In this document: piece after piece, positions 19,114 through 59,278 of the stretch | Layout: every line of letters begins with the position of its first letter | Position numbering within the stretch: the stretch's first letter is position 1 | DNA from: a virus | IMG/VR virus record: IMGVR_UViG_3300013958_000126 | Location: 1-64,000 of that record | Strand: one strand, 5' to 3' | DNA length: 64,000 bases | Position numbers and translations under genes: made by a program | Notes under the pieces: model-generated | Told to the model about the DNA's origin: nothing | Database searches by the model: none | Seen by the model: the letters and a program-made list of their open reading frames with translations, nothing else

Positions 19114-19121
19114 TGTTTAAT

Positions 19122-19784
19122 TTAATTTCTATTGATTACATTAATCTGGCAGCTTTCCATTACATCAAGAGCCGCTTTATGCTTTTCCGGTGTTGATCCT
19201 GCGCAGCATGATGCATCAACTGTGATTTTTGCCTCTGGATAATAAGTTTTAATCAAAAGAGCGTTCGTAATAACACAGATATCTGTGCATATGCCAATAA
19301 TTTCAATATCTAATAAAGAACCATCTGTAGTATTAAATATTTCTTCCCAATCCCAGTCATCAAATCCAAAAGTAGATTTACAACATACCATAAAACTATC
19401 GAGATTTTTATAATCAAGTTCATCAACAATTTCCCAACCTTTAGTACCATACATACAATGTTCAGGAAGTTTTCTGCCCTCTGAAGTATCTGCGTAATCT
19501 GAATGATGAGTATCCTTTGTAAGAATTACATTGTTCTTATTATTCTTATATTCATCAAATTTCTTTTTCACATTTGGTACAATAGCTTGTGCTTCCGGTG
19601 TTCCAAGAACTCCTGTCACAAAATCATTCTGCACATCAATTACAATCAGAACTTTCTTCTTCTCTTTTTTCATTTTTATTCTCCCATTCTTTAATTTGCT
19701 GTGCTCCATCTTCAACTTGCTGCTTATCATGTCTTGAATAGTTATCTGCTGGACCATAAGCACCTTTATGTCGATATGAGGCAT
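19122..19784 (-). CDS. Isochorismatase-family hydrolase (nicotinamidase PncA-like); true start probably internal Met (MKKEKKK, ~19673)
   Basis: VLIVIDVQNDF, catalytic Cys context GICTDICV. Confidence 0.6.
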   Translation of the reverse strand: MPHIDIKVLMVQQITIQDMISSKLKMEHSKLKNGRIKMKKEKKKVLIVIDVQNDFVTGVLGTPEAQAIVPNVKKKFDEYKNNKNNVILTKDTHHSDYADTSEGRKLPEHCMYGTKGWEIVDELDYKNLDSFMVCCKSTFGFDDWDWEEIFNTTDGSLLDIEIIGICTDICVITNALLIKTYYPEAKITVDASCCAGSTPEKHKAALDVMESCQINVINRN

Positions 19785-19995
19785 GTCCTTTCCGAGTATT
19801 AGTTTTTACTGCAGTTCCACCCATGCCAAGTCGTCCACTGTGTCCTTTATGTAACATCCCCCTCTTTAAAATCAGGATCGTTCAAAGTTTTATATCCATG
19901 ATACATAAGTTCTCGTTGACTTATTAATTTTTTTCTACGTTCAATATTTCGTAGTCTTTGCTTTCTCAAATACCCTCTGTTACGTTCCGGCATTA

Positions 19996-20454
19996 CTATT
20001 CCTCCAGTCTATACAAAATAATTGGTCCACCTTCAATATAGAACGTCGCATTGTAATCTATAAATTCTCTAGCCTCATCTTCTGTCATATCCTCATGGTT
20101 AACTAAAGATTCAACCATTTTTTCGTAATCATATATTGCTCTATCATCAGAAGAAACACCAAGAAACGCATCTTCATAAGATGGATTTGTAAAGAATATC
20201 GTTCCCTCGTACCCGGCCTCTAACAATAACCGTTCTGTTTTTGATACTTGGTCTTCATATATATTATCTGCATGTGCTTCAATGTCATCATGTAACGTCT
20301 CTTCTGGGTAATCTATAAGAGAATCCATAATATAAGAAGAAGTAATCATATTTAAAGCTTTCTCTTCTGAAATTTGATATTTTCTTTGTAATACATCTTG
20401 CAATCCTTCAATGTAACCCTTAACACTTTCTGTAAGTTCTGACATATCTACCAT
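19996..20454 (-). CDS. Hypothetical acidic protein
   Basis: 152-aa ORF. Confidence 0.45.
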   Translation of the reverse strand: MVDMSELTESVKGYIEGLQDVLQRKYQISEEKALNMITSSYIMDSLIDYPEETLHDDIEAHADNIYEDQVSKTERLLLEAGYEGTIFFTNPSYEDAFLGVSSDDRAIYDYEKMVESLVNHEDMTEDEAREFIDYNATFYIEGGPIILYRLEE

Positions 20455-21206
20455 TATGCGATCCTCACAATCTGTTCATATAGAACTATATCTTTTATTG
20501 TTATTGCTTTATTGTCGTGGTAATGTCCACACAACCAACGCTTATAATCAACATTGCACCTTATTTCTTCCAGATAATTTGTTAACTTATCCGGCTTATA
20601 TAATCCATGTGATAATAATGCTGCTGTAGAAGAAGCTGTACAATGTGTCAGGATAAAATCTACTTTATTATCATGTTCTGCCAGATTCTTTATACCCTCA
20701 TCCATCTCTTTTTCATCTGGCATTTCTCGCTCCCACCATGAAATGTGATTAATTCGGTACATTTTATCCGGATCATCCCTCCATTCTTTTACTCTTGGAT
20801 CGTCAATCTCTAATACTCCATCTGAAATATCATGACTTGAAGCCCCTCCAAAGGTAAAGAATGTTAAATCGTCTATCTCAAACACCTGTCCTCTCATAAG
20901 ATGAATTACTGATGGTTTAATAAAATGTACCTTACCTCCATGCCATTCTTCTACCGGATAAGAATCTAATATATCGTAATTCTCATGATTTCCGTCAATA
21001 AAGAGTGTTGTGAAATGTTTCTCTTCAAGCCAATTCAGGTACCACCTTTGCTGCGGTGAATCTCTCCATATCCCAAAATCTCCAAGAATTATCACATAAT
21101 CGTCCTTCGACATCTCACGCTGTTCGGGAAAAGAATCCATATTAACTCTATGGATCCAATCCCCATGCGTATCTCCAGTTACCCAAATCATGTCCGTGAT
21201 CCCCAA
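20454..21206 (-). CDS. Calcineurin-like metallophosphoesterase
   Basis: 250 aa; GDTHGD ... GDFGIWRD ... GNHEN metal-binding motifs. Confidence 0.7.
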   Translation of the reverse strand: MGITDMIWVTGDTHGDWIHRVNMDSFPEQREMSKDDYVIILGDFGIWRDSPQQRWYLNWLEEKHFTTLFIDGNHENYDILDSYPVEEWHGGKVHFIKPSVIHLMRGQVFEIDDLTFFTFGGASSHDISDGVLEIDDPRVKEWRDDPDKMYRINHISWWEREMPDEKEMDEGIKNLAEHDNKVDFILTHCTASSTAALLSHGLYKPDKLTNYLEEIRCNVDYKRWLCGHYHDNKAITIKDIVLYEQIVRIA

Positions 21207-21345
21207 ATGAAGTAGTTAACACTTAAAATAAATAATGATATTGCAGAAGGCCAATAACCATCCGGAACAACATTATTCATAACAACGCTCATGCATATCA
21301 CACTGATAATGAAAAACACAATATTTTTTAATATCGTTTTAATCA

Positions 21346-21822
21346 TTATTTCGTTAACTCCTTATACTGATCAAGCAAGGCCGCCAGTTCTGGATTCTCA
21401 GCCGCATACATTTCATATTTCTTTGTTACATCCATCTGCTTAATAACTGCATCCATATCTTTTTTAAGCTTCTCAGCTTTCTTTCTATTTTCAACACGCT
21501 GGTCATATGCAGATGTATCAACTCTACAGATAATTTCTGCAGTAATATTCTTGGCGCATTTTACTTCTGCTTCCGACACAGTTAAAATTTCTTTAATTGT
21601 CAGAACATCTTTGTTACAACCACTTACTAAAACCTGGTCTCCGGCTTTATATGTATTACCGTCATCAAAAACTGCATAATAATAGTCTTTTTTACAACAA
21701 CAAGTTACTTCTTCAATTACTGCTACTGCATAATACCCTGTTAATTTTGCCATTTGTTCATTCTCCTCTTCTGATTTAATTATATTTAATAAATAACCTT
21801 CATACGTTTTAAACTTAACCAT
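21346..21822 (-). CDS. Hypothetical protein
   Basis: 158-aa ORF. Confidence 0.45.
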   Translation of the reverse strand: MVKFKTYEGYLLNIIKSEEENEQMAKLTGYYAVAVIEEVTCCCKKDYYYAVFDDGNTYKAGDQVLVSGCNKDVLTIKEILTVSEAEVKCAKNITAEIICRVDTSAYDQRVENRKKAEKLKKDMDAVIKQMDVTKKYEMYAAENPELAALLDQYKELTK

Positions 21823-22003
21823 ATCTGCTTATTTCCCAAATACTGATTTCAGTAATAAGATTACAAGCCAAATTCCTGTAGCAATCAACCAGCTGAAAGC
21901 GACCCCGAAACATAATGTGATTAATTTTATAATTCCACATGTTACGATCCAACTGAAAGCTAATGCCAATAATGACATAATAATAAGTAACATTCCCCTC
22001 ATA

Positions 22004-22966: not shown

Positions 22967-22968
22967 TA

Positions 22969-23130
22969 CTCATTCTCCTTATCTTTTTCTTTATTTTCTT
23001 CTCTGTTTATTTCATCTGCTGCATCTTTCCAGATCCTATGTAAGAATCTACCAAATGGATAAAACAATGCAGATAATAGAAACCATAAAATTACTGCTCC
23101 AACTAATACTAAAAATATAAATACCGGATT
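22969..23130 (-). CDS. Small membrane protein immediately upstream of SPFH gene (not in ORF track, <60 aa)
   Basis: Read manually: MNPVFIFLVLVGAVILWFLLSALFYPFGRFLHRIWKDAADEINREENKEKDKE*. Confidence 0.3.
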
Positions 23131-23188
23131 CATATAATTCTCCTTACTACGGTATGCGTGTTCTTACGCATACCGTATAATTAAATTA

Positions 23189-24169
23189 TCATTTATTATT
23201 CTGCTGAGTCTGACCGTTCAGAATTTTAACTCCACCGGTAGATTCTACAGTCTTAGCAGCAAGTTCTCTCATCTGAGCATATGCATCGTCAAGTTTCTGC
23301 TGTAATTCAACTTTTTCTGCTCTCGCATTAGCCAGATCCTCTGTAAGTCTTTCATTTTTATCTTCCAGAAGCTGTTTCTGATATTCAGCATCTTTCTTAA
23401 GTGCTCTGACCTCAAACGCATTTGATTTATCAGCATCGGCTCTACCTTTTTTAATACCTTCCTCTGTTGCTGCTGCAATCAATGTCGGAATCTCTTCTAC
23501 TTTTGCTTCTAATTCCTTTACATGATCAGCTTTTGCATTCAGTTCTGTTTCTTTCTCAAGAGCCGCTGTTTCTCTAAGTTCCAAAATCTTTTCTCTAGCA
23601 GCTTTCTCATCTTCCCACTTATCATTTTCAGCTTTACGACTACGTTTCAGATTATAGGTATATTCATCTTCCTCACGGCTACGAGTTAATTTAATTTCAT
23701 TTTCTCTTGCTTTAGCTTCTGCATTGATAGAATCAATAATTTCCTGTTTCTGCTGCTTCAGTGCCTCAATTTCAGCTTTCAGTGTATCTTTTTTCTCACC
23801 CAATTCAGCTTCAATCTCTGCTTCTTTCGCTGCCTGAGCCTCTTTTAACTCTTCATTTTTCTCTTTATAAGCATTGATCATAGCTGCCATAGCATTTGCT
23901 TTTGTCTCAATGCCATATAATTCATCTAACTCAAGCTGTTTAATTTCAATAGCTTCTGTAAGATCATTGTATTTCTTGATAATCTCTGGATTAAAGATAT
24001 CCTCTTTTGCTGTTGCATCTGCAGATTCGATAACTTCTACCTTTTTAGCCTTCGCTGCTTCTTTTGCAGGATCATCAATCATTCGGTCTCTTGTATCAAG
24101 TTTCTCCACCGCTGCCTTATACGCTTCCATAATTTCTGCCTTTGTTGATTTCATTGTAATTTCTGCCAT
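23189..24169 (-). CDS. Ala/Glu/Lys-rich coiled-coil protein
   Basis: 326 aa; SD AAAGGAGAA 9 nt before ATG; composition typical of PspA/flotillin-associated coiled coils. Confidence 0.5.
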   Translation of the reverse strand: MAEITMKSTKAEIMEAYKAAVEKLDTRDRMIDDPAKEAAKAKKVEVIESADATAKEDIFNPEIIKKYNDLTEAIEIKQLELDELYGIETKANAMAAMINAYKEKNEELKEAQAAKEAEIEAELGEKKDTLKAEIEALKQQKQEIIDSINAEAKARENEIKLTRSREEDEYTYNLKRSRKAENDKWEDEKAAREKILELRETAALEKETELNAKADHVKELEAKVEEIPTLIAAATEEGIKKGRADADKSNAFEVRALKKDAEYQKQLLEDKNERLTEDLANARAEKVELQQKLDDAYAQMRELAAKTVESTGGVKILNGQTQQNNK

Positions 24170-24200
24170 GTTTTTAGTTCTCCTTTTTCTCCGTGTTTTG

Positions 24201-24216
24201 TTTAATTAAATTTTTA
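24201..24216 (-). promoter_or_regulatory. Instance of recurrent AT-rich motif (sense strand AAAAATTTAATTAAAC), ~33 nt upstream of start codon of 23189-24169
   Basis: One of ~19 near-identical copies; see findings. Confidence 0.4.
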
Positions 24217-24237
24217 TATCAAAGCTTTAATAGCTTA

Positions 24238-24765: not shown

Positions 24766-24771
24766 TACATT

Positions 24772-28206: not shown

Positions 28207-28378
28207 TACACATAATCTTAAAAAGTCTTGTGCTTACATTGCCATCTGAATCAAGAAATCTTTTGCAAGTATCTTTCTTACAGCACTCATTACCATCTTT
28301 CTGGCAAAAATAATAACTATCTTTTTCATTATCGCATCCAACTACAATATTAGTTCCGTTTGCAAAATATACATTCAT
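28148..28378 (-). CDS. Small Cys-rich hypothetical protein
   Basis: 76 aa. Confidence 0.3.
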   Translation of the reverse strand: MNVYFANGTNIVVGCDNEKDSYYFCQKDGNECCKKDTCKRFLDSDGNVSTRLFKIMCNDENHHILYIPERNETNNA

Positions 28379-29133
28379 ACATTATTGCTCGCAATCTTTA
28401 AAAGTAATTCTCTATTAATTCCCGGATACCAAGACTCAATCTGATTAATTAAATCTTCAATCATGATCTGAAGCTCCGGAGCAGCTGTTCCATGAGCGCC
28501 ACCATCTTTTGATCCTCTCTCAACATAAATATGCGCTAATTCAGTAATATTTATTTTGAAAGTAAAATTCATGGGGATTGCTAGTGGATATAAACCACGT
28601 TTTACATCTTTATTATTTTCTAATCCTTTTTTGATGAAACCATTATTTGACCTTACATAAGTATCACCATAATAACTAATCTCACCAGGAATTTTCGTAC
28701 CAAGATATTTTAATACTTCATCCCATGTGATAATTTTATCTTCATACCATTCAGAAACTTCTCCTTCATGGTAATCTGCAAGCCTTGTACTGCTACGAAT
28801 AATTCTGTTATCCATTCTCTTTGCGTGGGAGTCAAGATCGTCGGTTGCTCCTCTATGAAGACCTTCTACAACAACTGAAATATCTTCAAATCGCAGCATT
28901 GTAATATGCTTTTGTCCCCATTTAAGAAGTTTTGCTACTTCTTTGTCGAATTTAATTTTTAATTCATCATCCTCTGGCGAATCTAATGGCCTCCCATAAC
29001 GATCTGTGCAATGATCTACCATTTCTTTGAGCTGCTGCTCTATCTCTCTATTCCATGTTCTTTTGCTCATGTACATTGTTCTGATTGCATCTCTAATTGA
29101 GTGCATTTCTGTAAGGGTTACTTTCATGTCCAC
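28375..29133 (-). CDS. Hypothetical protein; weak resemblance to divergent flavin-dependent thymidylate synthase (ThyX-like)
   Basis: 252 aa; HITMLRFEDISVVVEGLHRG ... SSTRLADY and ERG..GGAHGTAAPELQ loosely parallel ThyX blocks but canonical RHR..S motif absent. Confidence 0.3.
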   Translation of the reverse strand: MDMKVTLTEMHSIRDAIRTMYMSKRTWNREIEQQLKEMVDHCTDRYGRPLDSPEDDELKIKFDKEVAKLLKWGQKHITMLRFEDISVVVEGLHRGATDDLDSHAKRMDNRIIRSSTRLADYHEGEVSEWYEDKIITWDEVLKYLGTKIPGEISYYGDTYVRSNNGFIKKGLENNKDVKRGLYPLAIPMNFTFKINITELAHIYVERGSKDGGAHGTAAPELQIMIEDLINQIESWYPGINRELLLKIASNNV

Positions 29134-29210
29134 ATATCTCCTTGAGTTAATTTAATTTATTTTCCCTGTGCCATTATAATAGCACCGTAGGCTTCTGATG
29201 TCAATACTAA

Positions 29211-29230
29211 AAGTTAATTTAATTTGTTTT
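29211..29230 (-). promoter_or_regulatory. Instance of long variant of the motif (sense AAAACAAATTAAATTAACTT), overlapping stop of 29219-29992
   Basis: Identical 20-mer also at 46754-46773 and 56842-56861. Confidence 0.4.
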
Positions 29231-29992: not shown

Positions 29993-32292
29993 TTGCTCTC
30001 CTTTTTGTTTAATTTAATTTTTAACTTCTTTAATATATCTAATAAAAAAGTGTTCCTCTTAAAATTCTCTTTCTTTTTAATGGATCTGTTTACAGTGTCT
30101 TTATCTCCAATATGAAAGCATTTTTCTTTTGTACGTGTTAATGCCACATATAATAAATTAGAATTCATCATATAAGCATGACAAGATGGTGTAAGTGTAA
30201 TCGTCACCTTAGCACTTCCTCCTTGGCTTTTATGAATAGAAATTGCATATCCAAGCAGCAACATTGACATTTCTGATTTTTCATATTTTACTCTGACACC
30301 ATCAAAATCAATAATAGCGCCTGTCTTATGTTCATTTGTATATGGAATAATTTCGTCATAAATATCAATAATCTTTCCTAACATACCATTAGGAATAAAT
30401 GTGTTCTTTATAGAAGGTTCATCATTTTGAGAAGCATTTTCTATATTCATATCCCCCATATCCACTTCTGCTTCATAATTATTTTTGATCTGAATTACTA
30501 TATCACCAACGTAATATGTCGTATCTCCAGATTTGATACATTTTTCTGATCCATAGTTTGGATTAGCAATTTTCTGGATTGCATTATTAATTGCAATAGT
30601 ACCACAATCACCTTTATTGAAAGCAGATAGAACAAGGATATCTTCAGGAACATATTGAGAAAGAAGCTTCTGATATAATCCAATTGCACATTTTACTGCT
30701 TGTTCATTATTAGCATTAATAAAAGTATAATCCTTGCCAAATTTTACCATACCATTACTCAAATCATATAAATATGGTTTCATATTTCTAACATCAGTAG
30801 CAACTTTCATTAACCCACCCTCAGCATACCTGAAAATTTGATTCAAAGTCACTGTAGGTATAATAAATGAATTGATCATATCGTAAAGTAGATTTCCCGG
30901 CCCAACAGATGGAAGCTGCGCTGAATCACCTACAACAATAAGTTTCGTTCTGCTAAAATCAATTGCGTCACACAAATGTAAGAACAGAAATATATCTGTC
31001 ATAGAGAATTCATCTACAAGAACAACATCAAATGGGAGTTTGCATTCACTATCATATCCCCACCTATTCTTCGGCATATAACCTAAGCCACGATGAATTG
31101 TAGCCGCTGGCTTACCGGTATAATCACTCAACACTTTTGCAGCGCGTCCTGTTGGAGCCATTAAAGTATATGAAATATTGTTATCCTCCAACATTTTAAT
31201 GATCATTGCGGAAGTGGCACTTTTACCTGATCCTGCAAAACCATTCAGTATCATAATATTATTGTTACATATACATTCCAATGCACTGGTTTGTTCGTCA
31301 GTTAAATGATACTCTCCCGACGTCTGATAACTCTTCCAGTCAAAATCCCATATTTTAGGTTTTAAGTTTGCTACAAATAATATAGCAGCTATAGCAGTTT
31401 CAGTATCATGTGTGGCTTTTAAAGATACTTCAAAAGTATCTTTGTTATAATAAATATCTGGATCCTTTAAACATTCAACATAATGTGATGAACAAGCAGG
31501 AACAAGTCTTACAACCTGTTTTCTGAGATCGCGGAGATCCATTTTAGTATTTCCCTCTTTTTGATTCTCTTCCAAATAATATTCCATACATGCTGCACAT
31601 CTTTGCGCAGATGATTTTAATTCAAACGGAAAATTGATCTTGCCAAGTCTCTGCAATTCTAAAAGAATACTATCTGCCTTAATAAAACCTACACCAGATA
31701 TTTTTGTCAAAGATTTATATGGTTGTTTTCTCAATTCTTGTTTCATTTTAGGGATTGATTTAAATTCATCATATAATTTCTTTAACATTGACATTGTGAG
31801 AATTCCACCAAATTCAATTACTAAATCATAGATACAATAATTCTCAACTATTTTTGTTTTAATAGTTTCAAATGTTTTTTCTCCGATACCTTTTAATTTA
31901 TCAAGATCAACAGTATCAGCTTCTCCTCTTAACACAATATCAATAATATCTGGATAATGCTGCCAAAGTACTCCTGCCTGGTTCTCAGTTAAAATTTCTC
32001 TTAAGAACATATAAACTTCTTCTTCAGTTTTAGGCTTATCCATTCTCACATTTACAATATCATACCCAAAACCATATTTATCGAGCTGTTCCACAGCCGT
32101 AATTTCATACGACTGTGAAACTACTAAATTATGTACGTTTCCATAAATAGTAACATTATCATATTTATTATGTTTAATATTGGGAAACTCTTTTTTATCT
32201 ACATCTGTAGCATAAATCTTATAATCCTCCGAATTATACATGCACTTTACGATTTTACAATTAAATTTCACTTCTTTTTTACTCATATTCAC
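29989..32292 (-). CDS. SF1B DNA helicase, RecD/Dda-like, with ~330-aa N-terminal extension
   Basis: 767 aa; Walker A GFAGSGKSAT, Walker B VVLVDEFSM, motif III GDSAQLPSVGPG, motif V SIHKSQGGSA, motif VI YVALTRTKEK. Confidence 0.85.
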   Translation of the reverse strand: MNMSKKEVKFNCKIVKCMYNSEDYKIYATDVDKKEFPNIKHNKYDNVTIYGNVHNLVVSQSYEITAVEQLDKYGFGYDIVNVRMDKPKTEEEVYMFLREILTENQAGVLWQHYPDIIDIVLRGEADTVDLDKLKGIGEKTFETIKTKIVENYCIYDLVIEFGGILTMSMLKKLYDEFKSIPKMKQELRKQPYKSLTKISGVGFIKADSILLELQRLGKINFPFELKSSAQRCAACMEYYLEENQKEGNTKMDLRDLRKQVVRLVPACSSHYVECLKDPDIYYNKDTFEVSLKATHDTETAIAAILFVANLKPKIWDFDWKSYQTSGEYHLTDEQTSALECICNNNIMILNGFAGSGKSATSAMIIKMLEDNNISYTLMAPTGRAAKVLSDYTGKPAATIHRGLGYMPKNRWGYDSECKLPFDVVLVDEFSMTDIFLFLHLCDAIDFSRTKLIVVGDSAQLPSVGPGNLLYDMINSFIIPTVTLNQIFRYAEGGLMKVATDVRNMKPYLYDLSNGMVKFGKDYTFINANNEQAVKCAIGLYQKLLSQYVPEDILVLSAFNKGDCGTIAINNAIQKIANPNYGSEKCIKSGDTTYYVGDIVIQIKNNYEAEVDMGDMNIENASQNDEPSIKNTFIPNGMLGKIIDIYDEIIPYTNEHKTGAIIDFDGVRVKYEKSEMSMLLLGYAISIHKSQGGSAKVTITLTPSCHAYMMNSNLLYVALTRTKEKCFHIGDKDTVNRSIKKKENFKRNTFLLDILKKLKIKLNKKESK
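30007..30022 (-). promoter_or_regulatory. Instance of recurrent AT-rich motif
   Basis: GTTTAATTTAATTTTT on + strand between helicase and HD genes. Confidence 0.4.
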
Positions 32293-32294
32293 AC

Positions 32295-41283: not shown

Positions 41284-41328
41284 AGTATTTGTTTCCTTTC
41301 TGTACTTTGTATAATTTAATTATTATAG

Positions 41329-43841: not shown

Positions 43842-43857
43842 TGTATAATTAAATTTT
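43842..43857 (-). promoter_or_regulatory. Instance of recurrent AT-rich motif (TGTATAATTAAATTTT on + strand)
   Basis: Immediately 3' of stop of 43859-44227. Confidence 0.4.
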
Positions 43858-43858
43858 A

Positions 43859-45324: not shown

Positions 45325-45340
45325 GTTTAATTAAATTTTT
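45325..45340 (-). promoter_or_regulatory. Instance of recurrent AT-rich motif, between tRNA-Leu and AAA ATPase gene
   Basis: GTTTAATTAAATTTTT. Confidence 0.4.
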
Positions 45341-46457: not shown

Positions 46458-46535
46458 TTTTATCTCCTTTTTGTATAATTAAATTATATTTCTCTGCAAT
46501 TCGGCTGGAGTATATTTGTATAAAATACTTGCCAA

Positions 46536-46620
46536 ACGGCGGTAGTGGGATTCGAACCCACACGAGCTACTGCTCAATAGAGTCAAAGTCTATTATGTCT
46601 AGCCAATTTCATCATACCGC
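46536..46620 (-). tRNA. Type II tRNA (long variable arm) with apparent anticodon UUG
   Basis: Anticodon stem-loop ATAGA-CTTTGAC-TCTAT, variable arm TGAGCAGTAGCTCGT, T-arm GTGGGTTCGAATCCCAC, acceptor GCGGTAT/TACCGC; identity ambiguous (Gln anticodon on Leu/Ser-type body). Confidence 0.55.
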
Positions 46621-46753
46621 TACATTCATTGTTTGTATAATTAAATTTCTTTCTTCTTTTTATTTAGCACAGGGAGCTTTCACTCCTCTGTGCTGTTGTC
46701 ATCCTTGACTATGTATTTAGTATAGCATATCAAGTTTCGTTTGTCAATATGCA

Positions 46754-46773
46754 AAGTTAATTTAATTTGTTTT
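46754..46773 (-). promoter_or_regulatory. Instance of long variant AAGTTAATTTAATTTGTTTT
   Basis: Exact copy of 29211-29230. Confidence 0.4.
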
Positions 46774-47283: not shown

Positions 47284-47397
47284 AATTTTTCTCCTTTATT
47301 TCTTTAATTTAATTTTTGCAACCAGAATACCTGCCAGAAAAGCAATGACAAGGCATACAACAAATGTTTCTATATTTAAAGCAACCATAATTACTCC

Positions 47398-48744: not shown

Positions 48745-48746
48745 TA

Positions 48747-49595
48747 CTATTGATTCAGTTCGTTACGCTGAACTGTTGATTTCCGTATAGGATATTTTAT
48801 ATTTGGATTATGCCAACTGCCACCATTATTAATTCTATAAATCTGAGTAACAGCTCGACCATATAATTTAGCAATATACTTCATAGGAATGCTAGGATCT
48901 TCTAACAATTTAATAATTTCTTCTAATTCATCATGAGTTAATCCTAATTCTCTGATAGGATATTCATCGTTTTCATCATAATATGTAACACCTTTATTAA
49001 TGTTTAAAATTACATATCTTTCTACTTTAAACATTCTAGCAATATAGTCTATACTATAAAAGCCATCTCGTAACATTTTTTTGATTAATTTAATTTTTTC
49101 ATGATTTATAGATGGACATATTAAAGGTTCTCTGATAGGATAAGTGATATCATTTTTTCTCCAAGCTATTCCGGTATTAACATTTCGAATAGTTTTTATT
49201 GATACATTATACTTTTCGGCAAGCTTATCAAATTCAACGTTCGTTTCTTTTAAATCTTTCATCAATAAATCAACCTGCTGTTGTGTTAACTTACTTTGCG
49301 GATTATTTTCTCCAGAACTATCTTGCCCACCATTTTGAATATTATATCCGAACTCTTTCTCATTACTGCGATATAATTTAATATATTCCTTTTCTTTTGT
49401 ATTATAATCTTCTCCGAAATATAATGTTTCTACCGAAAAATTTTCCCATCCATATTTATGTATTGCATTATAGATAGGATGATTCATGCGTTTATCATGC
49501 CGATGCTCTTTAATACATCTTTCTAAATTATTAGTTTGTCCTATATAAATCTTATGATTTATGTTATTCTCTATTTTGTATACATATTTCTCCAA
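48747..49595 (-). CDS. GIY-YIG homing endonuclease
   Basis: 282 aa; N-terminal YVYKIENNINHKIYIGQT (GIY...YIG), C-terminal repeated NUMOD-like DNA-binding modules (YPIREL repeats). Confidence 0.8.
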   Translation of the reverse strand: MEKYVYKIENNINHKIYIGQTNNLERCIKEHRHDKRMNHPIYNAIHKYGWENFSVETLYFGEDYNTKEKEYIKLYRSNEKEFGYNIQNGGQDSSGENNPQSKLTQQQVDLLMKDLKETNVEFDKLAEKYNVSIKTIRNVNTGIAWRKNDITYPIREPLICPSINHEKIKLIKKMLRDGFYSIDYIARMFKVERYVILNINKGVTYYDENDEYPIRELGLTHDELEEIIKLLEDPSIPMKYIAKLYGRAVTQIYRINNGGSWHNPNIKYPIRKSTVQRNELNQ

Positions 49596-50264: not shown

Positions 50265-50275
50265 TTTACTACTCC

Positions 50276-51013
50276 TTATTTATTATATTTCTTTTTCAAG
50301 CTGTTCAGATAATCATTGCTGTTATTCTTTTTTGCTTCCGCTTCAGCCTTTTCAAGTTTGGTAGACATCTTATTATTGTGTACTACTTTAGATCCTTCCA
50401 CAATAGCATCCAGATCTCTGTTTTTATCTCGAACAGAATCAAGCAATTTATCTGTTGCCGTGACATTTTTCAATTCATCCATATCATCATAGACTTCCTG
50501 AAGCTGCTTCTTTACTTTCATATTCTCCACAACTTCTTTGCTCTCACGCTTCAGACTTCTCAGATTCTTTTCACATCTTTCCTGCGTCTCTTTTGCTGCG
50601 TCTGTAGCTTCTTTATAAGCATTTACCAATCCAGTAACTCTGCGAATATCTGAAAGAATCTCTTCTCTTTCCTCTGCCTTTAACTGTGCAAGCTCGATCT
50701 GATTAGTTTTAACCAGAGATTCACACTCTGCTTCAACATTAACAAGTCGCTTTCTTTTTCTATCAAGATCTTTCTGCGCATTGCTCAGTTTTCCAGCAGC
50801 AATCTTATATGCATTATCCGCTTTATTATAAGATTCCTGAGCCTGGTCAATTTTTTCTTCGTAGATAGCCTCTGCGCCTTCTGGTGTGGTTGCCATATCT
50901 TTGATAAATAATCTAGTAAATCCAGACAGTAATTTTCTTGCTTCCGGAAACAAGATCAGTATCAATACAATAACAACCACTGCAACAATAAAAATCAGTT
51001 TACCAAGTTCCAT
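50276..51013 (-). CDS. PspA/IM30-like coiled-coil protein with N-terminal TM helix
   Basis: 245 aa; PspA-like N-terminal amphipathic block and heptad-rich remainder. Confidence 0.4.
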   Translation of the reverse strand: MELGKLIFIVAVVVIVLILILFPEARKLLSGFTRLFIKDMATTPEGAEAIYEEKIDQAQESYNKADNAYKIAAGKLSNAQKDLDRKRKRLVNVEAECESLVKTNQIELAQLKAEEREEILSDIRRVTGLVNAYKEATDAAKETQERCEKNLRSLKRESKEVVENMKVKKQLQEVYDDMDELKNVTATDKLLDSVRDKNRDLDAIVEGSKVVHNNKMSTKLEKAEAEAKKNNSNDYLNSLKKKYNK

Positions 51014-51546
51014 TATGCATTTCCTCCAATAGTAAAGTTAATTAAATTTTTGATTCTATCAATTTCAGTAGTAATAGTTTCATCAGATGTTTTTGTTTCA
51101 GCCCTTTGATCAGCAATCTCCTTTTCCAAACGCTCGATTTCCATTTTGTGTTCTTCAATAGCATTTTCTTTTTTAGTAACAACAGCTTCAGAATCACAAA
51201 TAATCTTTGAGAGAATGTCGCTTAAAACATCAACTCTTTTTTCTCCGTCTGCCTCAACATCAGTCACTGTCAAGCCAAATACACCAAGTGTTGCCAACAC
51301 TGAATTTCTTTTTGTTTCTGTCGTCATTTCCTTTGGAAATGATTTTATTAACTCCTCCACTTTAAAAATTGACTGTGTTTTATCTGCCAGATTATTCTGG
51401 CTGTAAATATCATCAATCAAAGTGTCAGTGTTAACTGAATCAAGCTCTGCGTTGGTCTCGGTTGTATCAAAATCAGTATCTATGTCTGGAATATCAGGCG
51501 TCTCATCCGGTACTTCTTCCACAAATAAGTTTTTTAAAATTCCCAT
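51013..51546 (-). CDS. Hypothetical acidic coiled-coil protein
   Basis: 177-aa ORF, stop overlaps next start (ATAATG). Confidence 0.45.
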   Translation of the reverse strand: MGILKNLFVEEVPDETPDIPDIDTDFDTTETNAELDSVNTDTLIDDIYSQNNLADKTQSIFKVEELIKSFPKEMTTETKRNSVLATLGVFGLTVTDVEADGEKRVDVLSDILSKIICDSEAVVTKKENAIEEHKMEIERLEKEIADQRAETKTSDETITTEIDRIKNLINFTIGGNA

Positions 51547-51558
51547 AGTATTTCCTTC

Positions 51559-53096: not shown

Positions 53097-53498
53097 TTAC
53101 TCCTCTAACATAGCTGTCAGTTCTTCAAGACTCTTGCCTTCCAGAGCTTCGTTCTGCTTTCTCTCAATGATTCTCATAATCTTCTGATTGCGCTCTTTCT
53201 TATCTTTTGCAGCTAATCTCTCTGCAGTTTCTACCTGTTTTACCTGTACGATGAATTTTACAATCTGAATTTTATTTTCCAGCGCCTGATCCGCTTCAGA
53301 TTTAACCTGTAACAGACTTTCTTCATCACTCTGCTTTTTCTCTTTATTCAGCAGTTTAAATACTGAATCCAGATCCTGTAATTTCAGATCCCATAAATCC
53401 TCTACTGAAATCATTCCTTTGAACGGGAATCTGTATTTATATCTTGTTGCCGCCTCAAAAATATTTGTAAGTTCCATGTTTTTATTCCTCCAATACAT
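53097..53498 (-). CDS. Hypothetical coiled-coil protein
   Basis: 133-aa ORF. Confidence 0.45.
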   Translation of the reverse strand: MYWRNKNMELTNIFEAATRYKYRFPFKGMISVEDLWDLKLQDLDSVFKLLNKEKKQSDEESLLQVKSEADQALENKIQIVKFIVQVKQVETAERLAAKDKKERNQKIMRIIERKQNEALEGKSLEELTAMLEE

Positions 53499-53504
53499 AT
53501 AATT

Positions 53505-53999
53505 TTATTTAACAAACATCCAGTCTTCTGCGAGCATATCCGACTGGGTAGCAAGCCATCCCATCTGTACGCCAGATGTTCCAACAAAAGCGATGGCTTT
53601 ATTTCCGATTGCGTCATGCTCACAATTTACAATCTCATTATCGGCAGTCTTATAAGAAATCCCAGTGGCAAGCTGAATGTACTGTTTCTTTCCATTCCAG
53701 CCTTTACGTGCCACTTTAAATCCTCTTTTCAGGTACTTAATCGCTTCTCCGAATGAGAATGTTGCTTCTCCACCAAGTATTGGGCAGTTCCGACTATCCG
53801 AATAAACCCACTCATCGGAAAGAATATTCTGAAGCGTATACTCCACATTCTGTGTTTCTCTTATATCCAGACAGCCGCCATCTTTTGTGTACATAAGGAT
53901 TGTCTGGGATTCTTCATCCCACCACCAATAACCCGCCCATGACGGAAGTTTTACTGGAATTCCAGATTTCATTTCTTCAAATGCTTCTTTAAATTTCAT
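53505..53999 (-). CDS. Tandem DUF2829-like protein (candidate Tad2-type small-molecule sponge)
   Basis: 164 aa; two internal repeats each resembling the DUF2829 pattern (FxEA...MK.G..V.R.GWNGK ... GWLATQSDMLAEDW). Confidence 0.4.
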   Translation of the reverse strand: MKFKEAFEEMKSGIPVKLPSWAGYWWWDEESQTILMYTKDGGCLDIRETQNVEYTLQNILSDEWVYSDSRNCPILGGEATFSFGEAIKYLKRGFKVARKGWNGKKQYIQLATGISYKTADNEIVNCEHDAIGNKAIAFVGTSGVQMGWLATQSDMLAEDWMFVK

Positions 54000-54032
54000 A
54001 ACTTTCTCCCTTCTTTGTTTAATTAAATTGTA

Positions 54033-56102: not shown

Positions 56103-56119
56103 ATTTTTATCTCCTTATT

Positions 56120-56135
56120 GTTTAATTAAATTTTT
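56120..56135 (-). promoter_or_regulatory. Instance of recurrent AT-rich motif upstream of 54033-56102
   Basis: GTTTAATTAAATTTTT. Confidence 0.4.
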
Positions 56136-56758
56136 ATTTTCACTGATTTTTCTTTTCTTATTCGTGACTGATTCTTTTTGAACAATTCATCAAATACTCT
56201 TGGAGTATATTTTTTATCTGGTACAATTTTTTCTATTATTTTAGTAGCATTTCCAGATAAAACACTTGCACACGATTGATGTTTTATCGTGTTTATAATT
56301 TGTATTTTATTTTTGGCTTCTCTTCGTCTATCACAAATCTCTTGCAACTTTTTGCATAATTTATATCCTTCTGCCGCAGAAAACTTATGAAATTCAATAT
56401 AATGCAAAATGTCTGAAATTTGTAAATCAGTATATGAAATAATAGAATTAAGTTCTTTTGAATAATCAGTAATTTCATTCATCTTACTTGAAAATTCATT
56501 TATACTACCGATAATTTCACCAACTATATCATCTGTCGTAATTGCTTCAACTCCATTATAATCGGTTTCACAAATTTCATATGGTCCAAATTTTTTTAAT
56601 ACGTCTGGAATATTATTTGCTTGAATTGCCTTAATCTTTTTCTTTTCAATTTCAGGAACCAAGAGTGCATCACCAAGATCAGATACTAATTTGATTCTTC
56701 CTGTTGGATCTCTTGCGATGTACTCTCCATTTTTTCCTTTTAAATAGTAACATATCAT
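56126..56758 (-). CDS. Hypothetical protein
   Basis: 210-aa ORF. Confidence 0.45.
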   Translation of the reverse strand: MICYYLKGKNGEYIARDPTGRIKLVSDLGDALLVPEIEKKKIKAIQANNIPDVLKKFGPYEICETDYNGVEAITTDDIVGEIIGSINEFSSKMNEITDYSKELNSIISYTDLQISDILHYIEFHKFSAAEGYKLCKKLQEICDRRREAKNKIQIINTIKHQSCASVLSGNATKIIEKIVPDKKYTPRVFDELFKKNQSRIRKEKSVKIKI

Positions 56759-56841
56759 TGTTCATGCCTTTCTGATTGAGTTAATCTAATTCGTTTTGAT
56801 AGGTCAACTATATCACCATTATTTGCATTTGTCAATAGTAA

Positions 56842-56861
56842 AAGTTAATTTAATTTGTTTT
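56842..56861 (-). promoter_or_regulatory. Instance of long variant AAGTTAATTTAATTTGTTTT overlapping ligA stop
   Basis: Exact copy of 29211-29230. Confidence 0.4.
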
Positions 56862-58845
56862 TGTATTCTTCTTCACTGATAATAGGAATATTCAACTCAG
56901 AAGCTTTCTTATTTTTACTAGATCCACTGTTTTTATCATTGGTAATTAGATAATCAGTTGCCTTTGTAACTCCGGACACAACTTTCCCTCCTTTTGATTC
57001 TATATCCGCCACAAGTTCATCCCGGTTAGCAAAAATATGTAACTTCCCAGTGATACAGAATTTCTTTCCGGACAATGAATCACTTTCAGAAGATATTTTA
57101 TCATTATTAAGTTTCGAAAATATGAACTGTTCTGCCAAAGCAATCACGTAATCATAATTTTCCTTAAAATATCTATGGATAGAAATATTTCGCTCCGTCC
57201 CTAATCCTTCAATACAGGTAAAATTAAAATCAGAAGCAGCATCTTTAATAAAAGTTTCAAATGGATAGAGCATTCCTAATTCCCTGGTTCTTATTTCTTC
57301 ATATCTAGCAATATCCTTTGCAGCTCTACCACCAATTAACGGAATATTTAATCCTACAATAAATTTTTCTATGGTAGTATTTCTGCTAGACTCAATAGAA
57401 TCTAAAATATTCGCAATTTTCTTTGCTCCCATTCTAGGTAATCTGGACAATTCTGTAGAATGATCCTTCAAATAATACAGATCAATTGGTGATGTCACAA
57501 GCCCAGTATCAATCAATAGCTGCAATGTGGCCTCAGATAATCCATTAATATCATGGGCCTTTTTCCCTACAAAAGCATTCATCTCACCCAAAAGTTTGCC
57601 TTTGCATCCAGCATTCATGCACATCAATACTTCAGAATCGTTCTCTTTTACGACAGACACTGGTTCTCCACAAATTGGGCATATTTTAGGAATTATAAAC
57701 TTTTCACCGGTATTATAACCTCTTGTTATGTTTTGAGAAATCTGCGGAATTATCTGGTTTGCCTTATACACAGATACGGTATCATCTTTATGGAGATAAA
57801 ATCCTTTGAATATACTCACATTGTGTAGACTCGCTCTGCTTACAGATGTTCCATCAATATCGACCGGTTCAAAAACTGCTGTAGGCGTTAATTGTCCAGA
57901 TTTACCCATAGTCCATTCAATATCAGTCAAAACTGTCTCAAATTCATCATCATAGAACTTGTATGCCAGAGAATGACGTGGATACTTATCTGTGACTCCA
58001 AGTGATAATCCATAAGCGATATCATTATATGCAGCAACAAGCCCATCAATTGGATAAGATAAGTATGCTGCCTTTTCCTTTAACAAATTAATAACCTCTT
58101 CAAGATCCTGATTTTCTTTATATACACGAATATAAGGTACAATATCAAATCCAAGTTCTCTTGCTTTTTCAAATCTTGCTGACATTAAAGATAGTTCATC
58201 CATACCGGCAGGTACCTTCCATACTATAAAACGAACATGACGTTTGGCTGCTACCTTACTATCTAACTGTCTGACTGATCCTGAAGCAAGATTTCGCGGG
58301 TTCTTATATCTATCTTCTTCGTGTTTAATTAAATTATTAATTTTCTCAAAATCTGTATATGTAATAATAGCTTCTCCTTCAATTTCAACGTGGCCTTTCT
58401 GATTAATATGCATAGGAATATTTTCGAACGCCTTTGCATTGTGAGTAATAATTTCTCCTGTGACGCCGTTTCCGCGAGTTTCAGCCTGGATCAGCTCTCC
58501 ATCTTCATACGTCAAAAGAATTGTCAATCCATCCATCTTACACATTAGCAAAGAATCTTTATCACCAATAAATTTTCGAAGTATATTCACATCTTTAGTT
58601 TTATCAAGAGACATCATTAAATGTGAATGTTCAATTTTCTCTAATTTACTTTTTACTTCATATCCAACACTATGGACTGGAGAATTACTTAAAATAACTC
58701 CTGTTTCTTTTTCCATTTTTTCCAACTGATCACACAGATCATCATACTGATGATCCGTAACAATACTTTCTGCATTATTATAATAAGCATCTCGGTACTG
58801 ATTAAGTTTTTCAACCAATGCTTTCATTTCTTCAATCTTGTTCAT
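56845..58845 (-). CDS. ligA: NAD+-dependent DNA ligase
   Basis: 666 aa; adenylation motif KMDGLTI ... RGNGVTGE, Zn finger CPICGEPVSV...CMNAGC, C-terminal BRCT-like segment. Confidence 0.85.
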   Translation of the reverse strand: MNKIEEMKALVEKLNQYRDAYYNNAESIVTDHQYDDLCDQLEKMEKETGVILSNSPVHSVGYEVKSKLEKIEHSHLMMSLDKTKDVNILRKFIGDKDSLLMCKMDGLTILLTYEDGELIQAETRGNGVTGEIITHNAKAFENIPMHINQKGHVEIEGEAIITYTDFEKINNLIKHEEDRYKNPRNLASGSVRQLDSKVAAKRHVRFIVWKVPAGMDELSLMSARFEKARELGFDIVPYIRVYKENQDLEEVINLLKEKAAYLSYPIDGLVAAYNDIAYGLSLGVTDKYPRHSLAYKFYDDEFETVLTDIEWTMGKSGQLTPTAVFEPVDIDGTSVSRASLHNVSIFKGFYLHKDDTVSVYKANQIIPQISQNITRGYNTGEKFIIPKICPICGEPVSVVKENDSEVLMCMNAGCKGKLLGEMNAFVGKKAHDINGLSEATLQLLIDTGLVTSPIDLYYLKDHSTELSRLPRMGAKKIANILDSIESSRNTTIEKFIVGLNIPLIGGRAAKDIARYEEIRTRELGMLYPFETFIKDAASDFNFTCIEGLGTERNISIHRYFKENYDYVIALAEQFIFSKLNNDKISSESDSLSGKKFCITGKLHIFANRDELVADIESKGGKVVSGVTKATDYLITNDKNSGSSKNKKASELNIPIISEEEYKNKLN

Positions 58846-58869
58846 TTTTTCCTCCTGTATTATGTATAA

Positions 58870-59205
58870 TTAAATCGTCAAAATATCAAAATGTACTGAC
58901 CAATGATCACACATCATATCAATTGTTGCATCCGCGATATCGTTAACGCACTCGTCATCACATTTGACTGAATCAAACTGAGAAATATCAATATAATGCT
59001 CTGCTGTTCCCTCTTCAAAAGTAATAATATTATCATTTACTGTAATATTAACTGGATTCAACTGCATATGAGATATTATTGCAGATTCTTTTTCTCCTAC
59101 AGAGAAATGTACCGCAACAGTTTTATTGTCATATGCTGCTTTTTCAAACATAATATCGATTTTCTGAGCTACTTTACTTGCATTCTTTACAAATTCTCTA
59201 ACCAT
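58870..59205 (-). CDS. Hypothetical protein
   Basis: 111-aa ORF. Confidence 0.45.
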   Translation of the reverse strand: MVREFVKNASKVAQKIDIMFEKAAYDNKTVAVHFSVGEKESAIISHMQLNPVNITVNDNIITFEEGTAEHYIDISQFDSVKCDDECVNDIADATIDMMCDHWSVHFDILTI

Positions 59206-59278
59206 TTTTTTGTTCCTCGTAATAAATTTGATTTTAATGAAAGTTAATTTAACTTGTTACTTTATTTAAACATGGCGA

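Follow-up and report, generated by a model that had tools for sequence, protein, structure and literature searches.

The window analysed here (the whole 64,000-nucleotide stretch of an IMG/VR virus record) carries a short AT-rich word that recurs ahead of many of its minus-strand genes, raising the question of what this word does and which factor reads it. Positions 1-4527 are DNA of the host, Blautia wexlerae, followed by one arm of an SPbeta-like prophage of about 170 kb. The motif-bearing region is the early, replication and nucleotide-metabolism arm beside the lysogeny module, and the replication block of the prophage matches SPbeta yorG-yorL; the late (lysis/tail) end, as sampled, has 0-1 copies per 10 kb.

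All 19 positions listed for the motif in the initial annotation bear a copy, exactly there or within 1-3 nt. TTAATTWAATT has 16 matches versus 1.08 +/- 1.14 expected from dinucleotide-preserving shuffles (largest shuffle, 5), which upholds the suspected enrichment; 15 of the 16 lie on the plus strand, antisense to the genes. Read in the sense direction, the 13-mer AATTWAATTAWAC has 12 exact copies, all 12 on the gene (minus) strand, and 18 matches at no more than one mismatch (3.06 expected). A fuller sense form, AATTWAATTAW[AC][CT] (equivalent to AATTWAATTA followed by WAC or ACT), has 18 exact sense copies and one antisense copy, in agreement with the fixed orientation relative to minus-strand genes that had been proposed. 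For sixteen of these 18, the next start codon or tRNA follows 12-154 nt downstream, in prophage DNA whose non-coding share is only 7-8%; the typical distance to a start codon is 12-42 nt rather than the 25-120 nt first given. The conserved stretch spans about 16-20 bp around a core that is a 9-bp palindrome with a free central base, and across relatives the motif is 92% conserved versus 84% for its flanks. Three additional copies occur within genes, exact at 58323-58335 and 23684-23696 and with one mismatch at 49083-49095. Our analysis supports the motif as a cis-element that belongs to the integrated element and is specific, non-random and strand-oriented.

The 20-nt long form was reproduced as exact repeats at 29211, 46754 and 56842; among the matches listed, the exact 20-mer occurs only at these three window positions. 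Each of these copies immediately precedes the -35 of a canonical TTGACA-N17-TG-extended -10 promoter. These promoters (29204, 46747 and 56835) are the three best sigma-A promoters of the scanned 18-60 kb and the only ones there on the minus strand that are TG-extended and score 11/12; in all three, a second motif copy lies downstream of the start site. The long-form copies keep a constant distance to the -35, not to the start codon; the long form accompanies ordinary sigma-A promoters as an extra and does not itself constitute one. The promoter-associated features are:

56843-56855, minus strand: long-form copy AAAACAAATTAAATTAACTT, ending 10 nt upstream of the -35
56807-56835, minus strand: sigma-A promoter TTGACA-17-TGaTATAGT, 11/12, TG-extended, motif copies on both flanks
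56779-56791, minus strand: degenerate copy AATTAGATTAACT, beyond the transcription start of the 56835 promoter
46755-46767, minus strand: long-form copy, promoter-proximal, upstream of the -35
46719-46747, minus strand: sigma-A promoter TTGACA-17-TGcTATACT, 11/12, TG-extended
46635-46647, minus strand: copy AATTTAATTATAC, about 60 nt beyond the 46747 promoter, with tRNA-Gln 13 nt further on
29212-29224, minus strand: long-form copy, promoter-proximal, upstream of the -35
29176-29204, minus strand: sigma-A promoter TTGACA-17-TGcTATTAT, 11/12, TG-extended
29145-29157, minus strand: copy AATTAAATTAACT, past the start site of the 29204 promoter and ahead of the ribosome-binding site of gene 28375-29133
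24200-24212, minus strand: copy adjoining a candidate promoter, TTGATA-17-TGaTATAAA, before gene 23189-24169

The degenerate copy at 56779-56791 is perfect in a related phage (L017). The copy at 56843-56855 (minus strand) shares sequence with the final codons and the stop of the ligase gene.

The remaining copies occupy the gap from a stop codon to the following ribosome-binding site, with no promoter of their own; about 12 of the 19 have no recognisable sigma-A promoter nearby, and promoter scans agree with the earlier observation that the short form does not correspond to a sigma-A -35/-10 pair. These copies are:

59242-59254, minus strand: near copy AGTTAAATTAACT, between the repressor gene (see below) and a 111-aa gene
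58864-58876, minus strand: intercistronic copy GATTTAATTATAC, before the NAD-ligase gene
56120-56132, minus strand: intercistronic copy before a 689-aa gene
54017-54029, minus strand: intercistronic copy before a Tad2-like gene
53497-53509, minus strand: degenerate copy AATAAAATTATAT, before a 126-aa gene
51036-51048, minus strand: copy AATTTAATTAACT, within gene 51013-51546 at its 3' end, next start codon 23 nt on
47302-47314, minus strand: intercistronic copy AATTAAATTAAAG
46473-46485, minus strand: intercistronic copy before an AAA-ATPase gene
45325-45337, minus strand: copy 154 nt upstream of tRNA-Leu
43843-43855, minus strand: copy 123 nt upstream of the RNA-ligase gene
41309-41321, minus strand: intercistronic copy before a Sak4-like AAA_24 gene, head of the replication block
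30007-30019, minus strand: copy in the 3' end of a RecD2-like gene, next start codon 15 nt on
23175-23187, minus strand: copy followed by a hairpin, then a ribosome-binding site
21774-21786, minus strand: degenerate copy AATATAATTAAAT
19115-19127, minus strand: intercistronic copy, furthest from the lysogeny module

The copy at 53497-53509 is perfect in L017 and L224, where it adjoins the ribosome-binding site. The motif was said to bracket each tRNA gene; this is so for tRNA-Gln (46635-46647 and 46473-46485) and loosely for tRNA-Leu, and not for tRNA-Met or tRNA-Cys.

Other sequences take the place of the motif in related phages. Orthologous positions carry ATAATGATTTAATCAAAAGG in L331 phages and TWAWTAATAAATTT in L311/L312 phages (repressors 36% and 33% identical, respectively), and in both groups the replaced positions include the pair flanking the orthologous promoter. 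Because related phages have different sequences at the same positions, the motif is most likely recognised by a phage-encoded factor, as had been suggested. Two kinds of gene, sigma-like or DNA-binding, had been proposed as its source. Screening about 57 ORFs of the window turned up neither a phage RNA polymerase nor a sigma factor; the search did yield an MrpR/SroF homologue, at 59279-60190, within the following module:

59279-60190, minus strand: gene for an MrpR/SroF-like integrase-fold repressor (303 aa), the proposed trans-acting factor
60191-61471, minus strand: YopQ/SroE-like gene (DndB domain), YopQ match at E 1e-13
61510-62538, minus strand: YopP/SroD-like gene of the tyrosine-integrase family
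61484-61512, minus strand: candidate promoter TAGACA-17-TGaTATAAT of the YopQ-like and repressor genes, half motif AAATTAACTTT in its spacer
59272-59298, minus strand: hairpin with an 11-bp stem, ATGGTGACTAT-ttaat-ATAGTCGCCAT, overlapping the repressor stop codon

The ORF at 59279-60190 matches Pfam MrpR_N_CB (E 1e-16), and a database protein identical to its product carries PF22822 and PF22823. A phmmer search against the PDB matched YopR/MrpR and phi3T SroF, and BLASTP against YopR gave 5e-9. The top seven Foldseek matches of its AF2 model (pLDDT 89) are SroF, MrpR and YopR (E about 1e-10 to 3e-14), with a best TM-score of 0.77, to 'Phi3T SroF bound to DNA'; the E-values of true recombinases are 2e-4 or worse, and the R..HxxR..Y catalytic set is not conserved in the repressor family alignment. 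The order integrase-like, YopQ-like, MrpR-like equals that of SPbeta yopP-Q-R. Two comparisons among relatives also favour this gene as the source of the factor. Where the 10 kb searched hold no MrpR-like gene (11 relatives sampled), nine relatives have no repeated upstream 10-mer, and L339 and L340 have one each, at three sites. Repressor alleles at 58% and 49% identity go with the same core, in its T-centred form alone or its A-centred form alone. The hairpin is probably an insulator or terminator of the lysogenic transcript; different hairpins occupy its position in L311, L331 and L333. A Sar-type antirepressor was not identified, and the neighbouring 111-aa protein gave no sign of being one.

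MrpR (YopR) of SPbeta and SroF of phi3T have a tyrosine-recombinase fold and recombine DNA no longer; clamped as monomers around a long asymmetric AT-rich box at many distant sites, they keep lytic genes silent. MrpR was located on the repeated element SPBRE in vivo by ChAP-seq (Kohm et al. 2023, PMC10516654), and SroF, as a monomer, binds an asymmetric AT-rich box of 26 bp and reads its A-tracts (Chmielowska et al. 2025, bioRxiv 10.1101/2025.11.27.690993). We extracted about 12 SPBRE copies from the SPbeta sequence (45-134 kb scanned), all in gene orientation, placed just upstream of a -35 (aimR), adjoining the ribosome-binding site (yopM, yopV and yonX copy 2) or as a promoter-flanking pair (yonX); about half span a TAGACA-17-TATAAT promoter.

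The motif resembles SPBRE as an AT-rich repeat at a dozen or more distant intergenic sites, oriented with the downstream gene, and in its placements upstream of a -35, between start site and ribosome-binding site, and in promoter-flanking pairs. The phages share a homologous integrase-fold gene, last in a yopP-yopQ-yopR-like trio, and a large temperate layout with a DnaE-type replication block. However, the sequences are unrelated (AAATACAAAWAATATGTATA versus AAAAATTWAATTAWAC), the copies here number about 19-25 in 40 kb and are mostly promoter-less, and the host is a gut Clostridium-class anaerobe rather than Bacillus. No arbitrium genes were seen in gene lists of the 10 kb upstream. By the predicted structure, phi3T SroF with its operator Phi3TRE (PDB 9rd5) is the closest counterpart; Phi3TRE too is AT-rich and asymmetric with A-tracts, and its reading by a monomer fits a site of fixed polarity. 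It differs in length (26 bp, 24 of them read, versus the 16-20 conserved here) and from the palindromic core of the motif, and no Sar-type antirepressor was identified here.

Given the sequence comparisons and the analogy with SPbeta, we consider it somewhat probable that the motif is an operator array for the prophage's own MrpR/SroF-like master repressor; that the 59279-60190 protein binds it is inferred on the same grounds. Of the two roles first suggested, promoter or regulator site, the second is the better supported, and the system is most likely a further case of the known SPbeta-type repressor operators, not a novel class of promoter. In the lysogen, the repressor would occupy an element of about 16-20 bp, (A)AAA-AATTWAATTA-WAC/ACT. 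At promoters 29204, 46747 and 56835, one copy would lie over the UP-element/-35 flank and the second just downstream of the start site, which would exclude RNA polymerase or trap it. The roughly 12 promoter-less copies between stop codon and ribosome-binding site may serve as roadblocks or auxiliary sites, stopping read-through, including that from the repressor operon itself, into co-oriented early, replication and nucleotide-metabolism genes. The roadblock role is an added assumption, since the SPBRE copies examined in SPbeta are all promoter-associated.

Several observations weigh against the operator array. The repressor alleles at only 58% and 49% identity keep the same core motif although their genomes are otherwise 92-98% identical, a poor fit to a specificity that closely follows the repressor sequence. 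The conserved stretch is shorter than the 24-26-bp SroF box, and the parallel divergence of motif and repressor from clade to clade cannot be separated from that of the phages as a whole. The relative L339 has a small repeated upstream word in a locus where no MrpR-like gene was detected, and searches did not mark the 111-aa neighbour of the repressor as a Sar-type antirepressor. Strict sense-strand orientation would equally be expected of an RNA-level signal.

It is unlikely that the short-form copies are phage-specific (middle-type) promoters, used by reprogrammed host RNA polymerase or a phage polymerase and starting transcription a few nucleotides downstream. The late promoters of phage T4 (TATAAATA), like some other phage-specific promoters, have no -35, and the short forms likewise are AT-rich words shortly upstream of many genes and two tRNA regions, always gene-oriented, with no sigma-A pair; clade-specific sequence at conserved positions is also as expected with a phage-encoded recognition factor. 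However, no cognate sigma factor or polymerase appeared among the ORFs screened, and the motif, initially taken for a possible middle/late promoter, belongs to early and replication genes. Only 0-9 nt separate the motif from the Shine-Dalgarno sequence, and none in L017, L224 and all L331 copies (motif plus Shine-Dalgarno in relatives, AATTTAATTAAAGGAGG), so transcripts starting 5-8 nt downstream would lack the ribosome-binding site. Copies also flank ordinary strong sigma-A promoters, the palindromic core with its free central base better fits duplex than single-strand -10 recognition, and on inspection no register gives the sigma-A A(-11)/T(-7) pair for both centre variants.

Action in the mRNA is likewise improbable, whether as an AU-rich operator beside the ribosome-binding site for a phage translational repressor or as an endoribonuclease site cutting co-oriented transcripts into cistrons. 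T4 RegA, a phage protein, binds AU-rich words by the translation starts of many early genes. Most copies here lie directly 5' of a Shine-Dalgarno sequence, repeat and ribosome-binding site form one conserved unit in L331, orientation is strict (18 versus 1), and read-through would transcribe all copies, the 'promoter-proximal' ones included. Unlike RegA operators, copies also precede tRNAs and keep a fixed distance from -35 boxes; those before tRNA-Gln (13 nt), tRNA-Leu (154 nt) and the RNA-ligase gene (123 nt) have no nearby translation start. No RNA-binding or nuclease candidate co-varying with the motif was identified, and SPbeta elements identically placed by ribosome-binding sites are bound as DNA by MrpR in vivo (PMC10516654).

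It is very improbable that the copies are mainly gene-cassette exchange junctions with a secondary regulatory role, whether through homologous recombination at short repeats or site-specifically via the nearby recombinase-family proteins: only two swaps were seen, the recombinase-fold repressor family has no conserved catalytic residues, and in most cases the junction that holds a copy is orthologous and stable from clade to clade. Conserved intergenic repeats of any kind commonly give rise to exchange as a side effect, as T4 promoter-stem-loop elements do. In favour of exchange, the Tad2-like gene cassette is present or absent exactly between two motif copies (window versus L001/L219), the tRNA after the same copy differs between strains (L001:9876 versus window 46647), and three unrelated genes share motif-encoded final codons and stop.

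The prophage arm contains a recurrent AT-rich element, and the motif was confirmed at all 19 positions listed in the initial annotation. The string TTAATTWAATT occurs 16 times against 1.08 expected from shuffled sequence, so the excess over a shuffled control that the annotation had made its check is present, and 15 of the 16 lie on the plus strand. On the gene strand, the element reads AATTWAATTA with WAC or ACT after it; all 12 exact copies of the WAC-ending 13-mer are in the sense orientation, and pooling both endings gives 18 exact sense copies and one antisense. Sixteen of these 18 precede the nearest downstream gene or tRNA by 12-154 nt, in a prophage whose non-coding share is only 7-8%. 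Conservation extends beyond the selected core to an A-rich 5' flank and to the 3' positions W-A/C-C/T, giving an element of ~16-20 bp; in relatives the 13-mer is 92% conserved and its flanks 84%, a figure that ignores shared ancestry. The window thus holds at least ten distant intergenic AT-rich repeats co-oriented with their downstream genes.

Near 4.4 kb of the window, GC falls from 45% to 33%. Positions 1-4527 are host DNA with an Fe-hydrogenase/NuoF-like operon; the hydrogenase has 100% identity to its counterpart in Blautia wexlerae strain MSK.20.46, and the chromosome of that strain matches the window at 99% identity through 4527 and diverges beyond. From 4527 to the window end lies an integrated phage arm with all genes on the minus strand: a tyrosine integrase (4607-5815, minus strand), an NAD-salvage/nucleotide block (including NAMPT, NadE, a PurA/PurZ-like gene, and NrdD), a replication block in the SPbeta yorG-yorL order (Sak4-like ATPase, DnaB, primase, nuclease, DnaE polymerase, and RecD2-like helicase), four tRNAs with an RNA ligase and an NAD-dependent DNA ligase, and last a lysogeny module at 59-63 kb. 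In phage-form contigs, homology to the window breaks at 4470-4481 and is followed by an oppositely oriented lysis/tail-like region. A megablast of 20 kb against cultured phages gave no match, protein searches found only distant relatives (Clostridium difficile phiCD211-like phages and large Bacillus siphophages), and a literature search for SPbeta-like prophages of Blautia returned nothing relevant.

Copies of the element run from 59.25 kb, just downstream of the gene for a MrpR/SroF-like repressor, to 19.1 kb. No exact full element occurs in the tightly packed 4.5-19 kb block, where the only near-copies, with one mismatch each, are at 16451-16463 (intragenic) and 8761-8773; the 6 kb of small genes past the window end has one copy only, and 10 kb at the lysis/tail end has 0-1. 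When IMG/VR was scanned with the exact 20-nt long form of the element, the matches listed were mostly chance ones in unrelated AT-rich contigs, and among them contigs of this clade matched at three window positions only.

Two placements can be distinguished. Each of the three exact 20-mers ends 10 nt upstream of a TTGACA-N17-TG-extended -10 promoter, and these (named 29204, 46747, and 56835 by coordinate) are the sole 11/12, TG-extended sigma-A promoters on the minus strand in a scan of 18-60 kb. A second copy lies downstream of the start site at each of them:

29145-29157, minus strand, downstream copy of the 29204 promoter
46635-46647, minus strand, downstream copy of the 46747 promoter, ~60 nt downstream
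56779-56791, minus strand, downstream copy of the 56835 promoter, with one mismatch (perfect in the related phage locus L017)

The other copies lie in the short interval that separates a stop codon from the following Shine-Dalgarno sequence, at 0-12 nt from the latter, and two stand before tRNA regions. That the short form is not a sigma-A -35/-10 pair, as had been noted at the outset, is borne out: upstream of short-form copies the best scores for TTGACA and TATAAT hexamers 16-18 bp apart are no higher than those of random positions, without enrichment, and only sequences adjoining the three long-form copies carry such a pair. The early-promoter placement is seen at the three strong promoters and at 24212, which adjoins TTGATA-17-TGaTATAAA and with 29157 forms the exceptions to the promoter-less rule, and ~12 copies have no detectable sigma-A promoter. 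An antisense TATAAT in GTATAATT was also rejected as a promoter on inspection, being without a -35 box and absent from the GTTTAATT variants. Three unrelated genes, encoding the ligase, a 173-aa protein, and an HD-domain protein, share the same motif-encoded end, ...N-K-L-N-stop, and a ~36-bp module of motif plus promoter seems to have been copied onto gene ends:

56843-56855, motif-encoded gene end
46755-46767, motif-encoded gene end
29212-29224, motif-encoded gene end

The lysogeny module encodes a relative of a known phage regulator. MrpR (YopR; SroF in phi3T), the master repressor of the Bacillus prophage SPbeta, is folded like a tyrosine recombinase but no longer functions as one, and ChAP-seq located it at the SPbeta repeated element (SPBRE) of ten promoter regions (PMC10516654). 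The phi3T SroF binds as a monomeric clamp round a 26-bp AT-rich asymmetric box, reading 24 bp that include two A-tracts, at sites genome-wide (bioRxiv 10.1101/2025.11.27.690993). In the window, the gene order is that of yopP-yopQ-yopR (sroD-E-F) and is common to relatives:

61510-62538, minus strand, Phage_integrase (YopP-like) gene
60191-61471, minus strand, YopQ-like gene, DndB (BLASTP against YopQ, 1e-13)
59279-60190, minus strand, MrpR/SroF-like repressor gene

The 59279-60190 product matches Pfam MrpR_N_CB (E 1e-16), and an identical database protein carries both MrpR Pfam domains (PF22822 and PF22823). A phmmer search of the PDB retrieves YopR and SroF, and BLASTP against YopR gives 5e-9. 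The AF2 model (pLDDT 89) has only SroF, MrpR, or YopR among its top seven Foldseek PDB matches, with a best TM-score of 0.77 to DNA-bound SroF (9rd5), and true recombinases rank behind, at E 2e-4 or worse. The protein is thus a MrpR/SroF homolog with core-binding and catalytic-like domains in a tyrosine-recombinase fold. An invariant R..HxxR..Y catalytic set is absent from a 13-sequence family alignment, in which the tyrosine aligned in the window protein is a histidine in other members; the recombinase catalytic residues appear not to be retained, pointing to a function as repressor rather than enzyme.

The YopQ-like and repressor genes have a candidate TAGACA-17-TGaTATAAT promoter (61512-61484) with a half motif in its spacer. 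A strong hairpin with an 11-bp stem and no U-tract (59272-59298, minus strand) ends the repressor gene, its left arm encoding the conserved C-terminus KYGDYL. It may serve as a terminator/insulator or be a palindromic site for a different protein; at the equivalent place other clades carry hairpins that differ from it:

~6905-6935 of locus L311, hairpin
~5640-5670 of locus L331, hairpin
~7240-7270 of locus L333, hairpin

Compared with two relatives (L224 and L226), the module (58870-63323, minus strand) is hypervariable, its genes (277-aa, YopP-like, YopQ-like, MrpR-like, and 111-aa) being 49-80% identical, versus 92-98% for the rest of the genomes. The 111-aa ORF (58870-59205), which co-diverges with the repressor, has a Sar-like size and position and an acidic C-terminus; for this candidate Sar-type antirepressor the PDB gave no sequence match, and a fold search gave no match to Sar, the model being a monomer and Sar an intertwined dimer.

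The arrangement of the element also resembles the Bacillus system. SPBRE as derived from the SPbeta sequence is AAATACAAAWAATATGTATA, with ~12 copies all oriented with the downstream gene and four placements: spanning a TAGACA-17-TATAAT promoter, directly upstream of the -35 box (aimR), adjoining a Shine-Dalgarno sequence just downstream of a promoter (yopM and yopV), and, at yonX, as a pair on either side of a promoter. The last three recur exactly in the window. The orientation rule shared by SPBRE and the window motif looks odd for a DNA site; it fits a monomer reading an asymmetric box. In contrast, known sites of SPbeta and phi3T are all at promoters, whereas the window has a dozen promoter-less intercistronic copies.

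The comparison across many related phages used loci with the orthologue of the 689-aa gene at their centre. In L331, whose MrpR-like gene is 36% identical to the window repressor, the window motif is absent and ATAATGATTTAATCAAAAGG takes the orthologous positions (after the repressor gene, before the 689-aa gene, before the next gene, directly upstream of the orthologous promoter's -35 box, and again downstream of the start site); the repeat of this type is also given as TTTAATCAAAAGG. In L311 and L312, with a 33% repressor allele, TWAWTAATAAATTT is used likewise, including before the orthologous tRNA, and the L311-type repeat TAATAAATTT of the L023 clade sits at positions orthologous to the window motif; its interpretation as a promoter spacer was rejected on the wider L311 locus. 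Within the window's own clade, repressor alleles are 58% or 49% identical, flanking proteins are 92-98% identical, and the core motif is kept: intergenic copies are of the T-centred form only in 58%-allele genomes, A-centred only and with a changed 3' end in 49%-allele genomes, and mixed in the window. No repeated upstream 10-mer was found in nine of 11 sampled loci lacking a MrpR-like gene within 10 kb; the other two, L339 and L340, have a short repeated word at three sites each. In L339, where no MrpR-like gene was detected in the 22-kb locus, the small repeat TAATAAATAATATTAAAAA lies directly before three ribosome-binding sites (2349, 7481, and 12085).

Because the sequence changes between phages at fixed positions, this comparison argues against signals read by the host, such as a host promoter, a generic AU-rich ribosome enhancer, or a stop-rich spacer, and argues for a putative phage-encoded, fast-evolving reader. 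For this role the repressor suggests itself as the candidate, its co-variation with the motif being confounded with overall phage divergence.

The motif array and repressor of this gut Blautia prophage are best classed, by analogy, with MrpR/SroF-SPBRE systems, with predicted binding; the repeats changing at fixed positions support the suggestion in the initial annotation of a regulator site recognized by a phage factor. Gene-cassette exchange also occurs at the motif copies and looks like a by-product: the presence or absence of a Tad2-like gene is bounded exactly by two copies (window 53505-54029; L001:2860; L219:16161), and a different tRNA follows the same copy in other strains (window 46536-46647 versus L001:9876), which indicates that cassette swapping takes place at the repeats. 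An RNA-level operator (RegA-like) or processing site would account for the sense-strand rule and the Shine-Dalgarno adjacency, but it is improbable given that copies lie at a fixed distance from -35 boxes and are not confined to the proximity of start codons, standing before tRNA-Gln and tRNA-Leu and 123 nt before the RNA-ligase gene. The other initial proposal, a phage-specific middle/late promoter, is disfavoured: the window ORFs (the arm from 4527 to the window end of a ~170-kb phage) include no cognate phage polymerase, sigma factor, or appropriator, motif-to-RBS spacing is too short (zero in several copies), copies flank ordinary sigma-A promoters, and the sampled late-gene end has 0-1 copies. 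The YonO-type phage RNA polymerase has a single late promoter in SPbeta and hence offers no multi-site analogue, and the 689-aa protein, a widespread phage protein, has no polymerase signature.

Under regulation of the MrpR/SroF kind, the motif copies would be bound by the repressor in the lysogen. RNA polymerase would be shut out or trapped at the three early promoters by two clamps, one on the UP/-35 flank and one immediately past the start site, and the half motif in the spacer of the 61512-61484 promoter may permit autoregulation. Every early gene is downstream and co-oriented, so the promoter-less copies may be roadblocks against read-through, a step that we infer and that is the main departure from SPbeta. 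In a less likely reading, they would not be classical operators; a DNA-encircling monomeric clamp would sit before almost every early cistron, silencing a 40-kb co-oriented arm directly downstream of a constitutively transcribed repressor operon. It is possible, although rather doubtful, that the promoter-less copies form such a polar array silencing the 40-kb arm and double as junctions for swapping gene and tRNA cassettes; if so, this mode of prophage silencing has not been described for SPbeta or phi3T.

Among the commensals of the human gut, B. wexlerae is abundant, and gut metagenomes commonly contain relatives of this ~170-kb prophage, with dozens of IMG/VR contigs recovered at lengths of 90-175 kb. 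The finding extends a recently described mechanism and is not a new one; if correct, the integrase-fold MrpR/SroF system, so far known only from Bacillus SPbeta-like phages, reaches to gut Clostridia, and a concrete operator and three early promoters would be available for probing lysogeny control, induction, and superinfection immunity in gut megaprophages. The natural repressor alleles (100, 58, 49, 36, and 33% identity), whose repeats are matched or changed, offer a series on how such a clamp reads AT-rich DNA.

A 368-aa PurA-like protein (16466-17572, minus strand) matches PHROG 1211, "2-aminooxy adenylosuccinate synthetase" (PurZ), with E 3e-88; the PDB sequence matches listed are all adenylosuccinate synthetase (best E ~1e-18), and the protein is a candidate PurZ by PHROG annotation only. 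Should it be PurZ, adenine might be replaced by 2-aminoadenine in virion DNA; the minor groove of all A-tract operator copies would then be changed, so that the repressor could bind prophage DNA differently from replicating DNA.

The arm also has a dense gene set of NAD+ salvage/anti-defence type (8797-19784 and 53505-53999, minus strand), comprising NMNAT-like, NadE, Tpt1/KptA, NAMPT, PRPP-synthetase-like, nicotinamidase-like, and Tad2-like (Thoeris anti-defence) members and accompanied by the RNA ligase and four tRNAs, of which tRNA-Gln (46536-46622, minus strand; ARAGORN call) is unusually long at 87 nt. A homing-endonuclease-like gene with GIY-YIG and HTH_7 domains (48747-49595, minus strand), in a region with a 381-nt gap, holds one intragenic motif copy with one mismatch (49083-49095). 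A second repeated word, (TG)CAACAATTG, occurs eight times against 0.36 expected, always on the gene (sense) strand and always intragenic (58928, 41198, 22062, 15457, 14428, 10851, 10842, and 8725), the copies at 10842 and 10851 forming a tandem pair.
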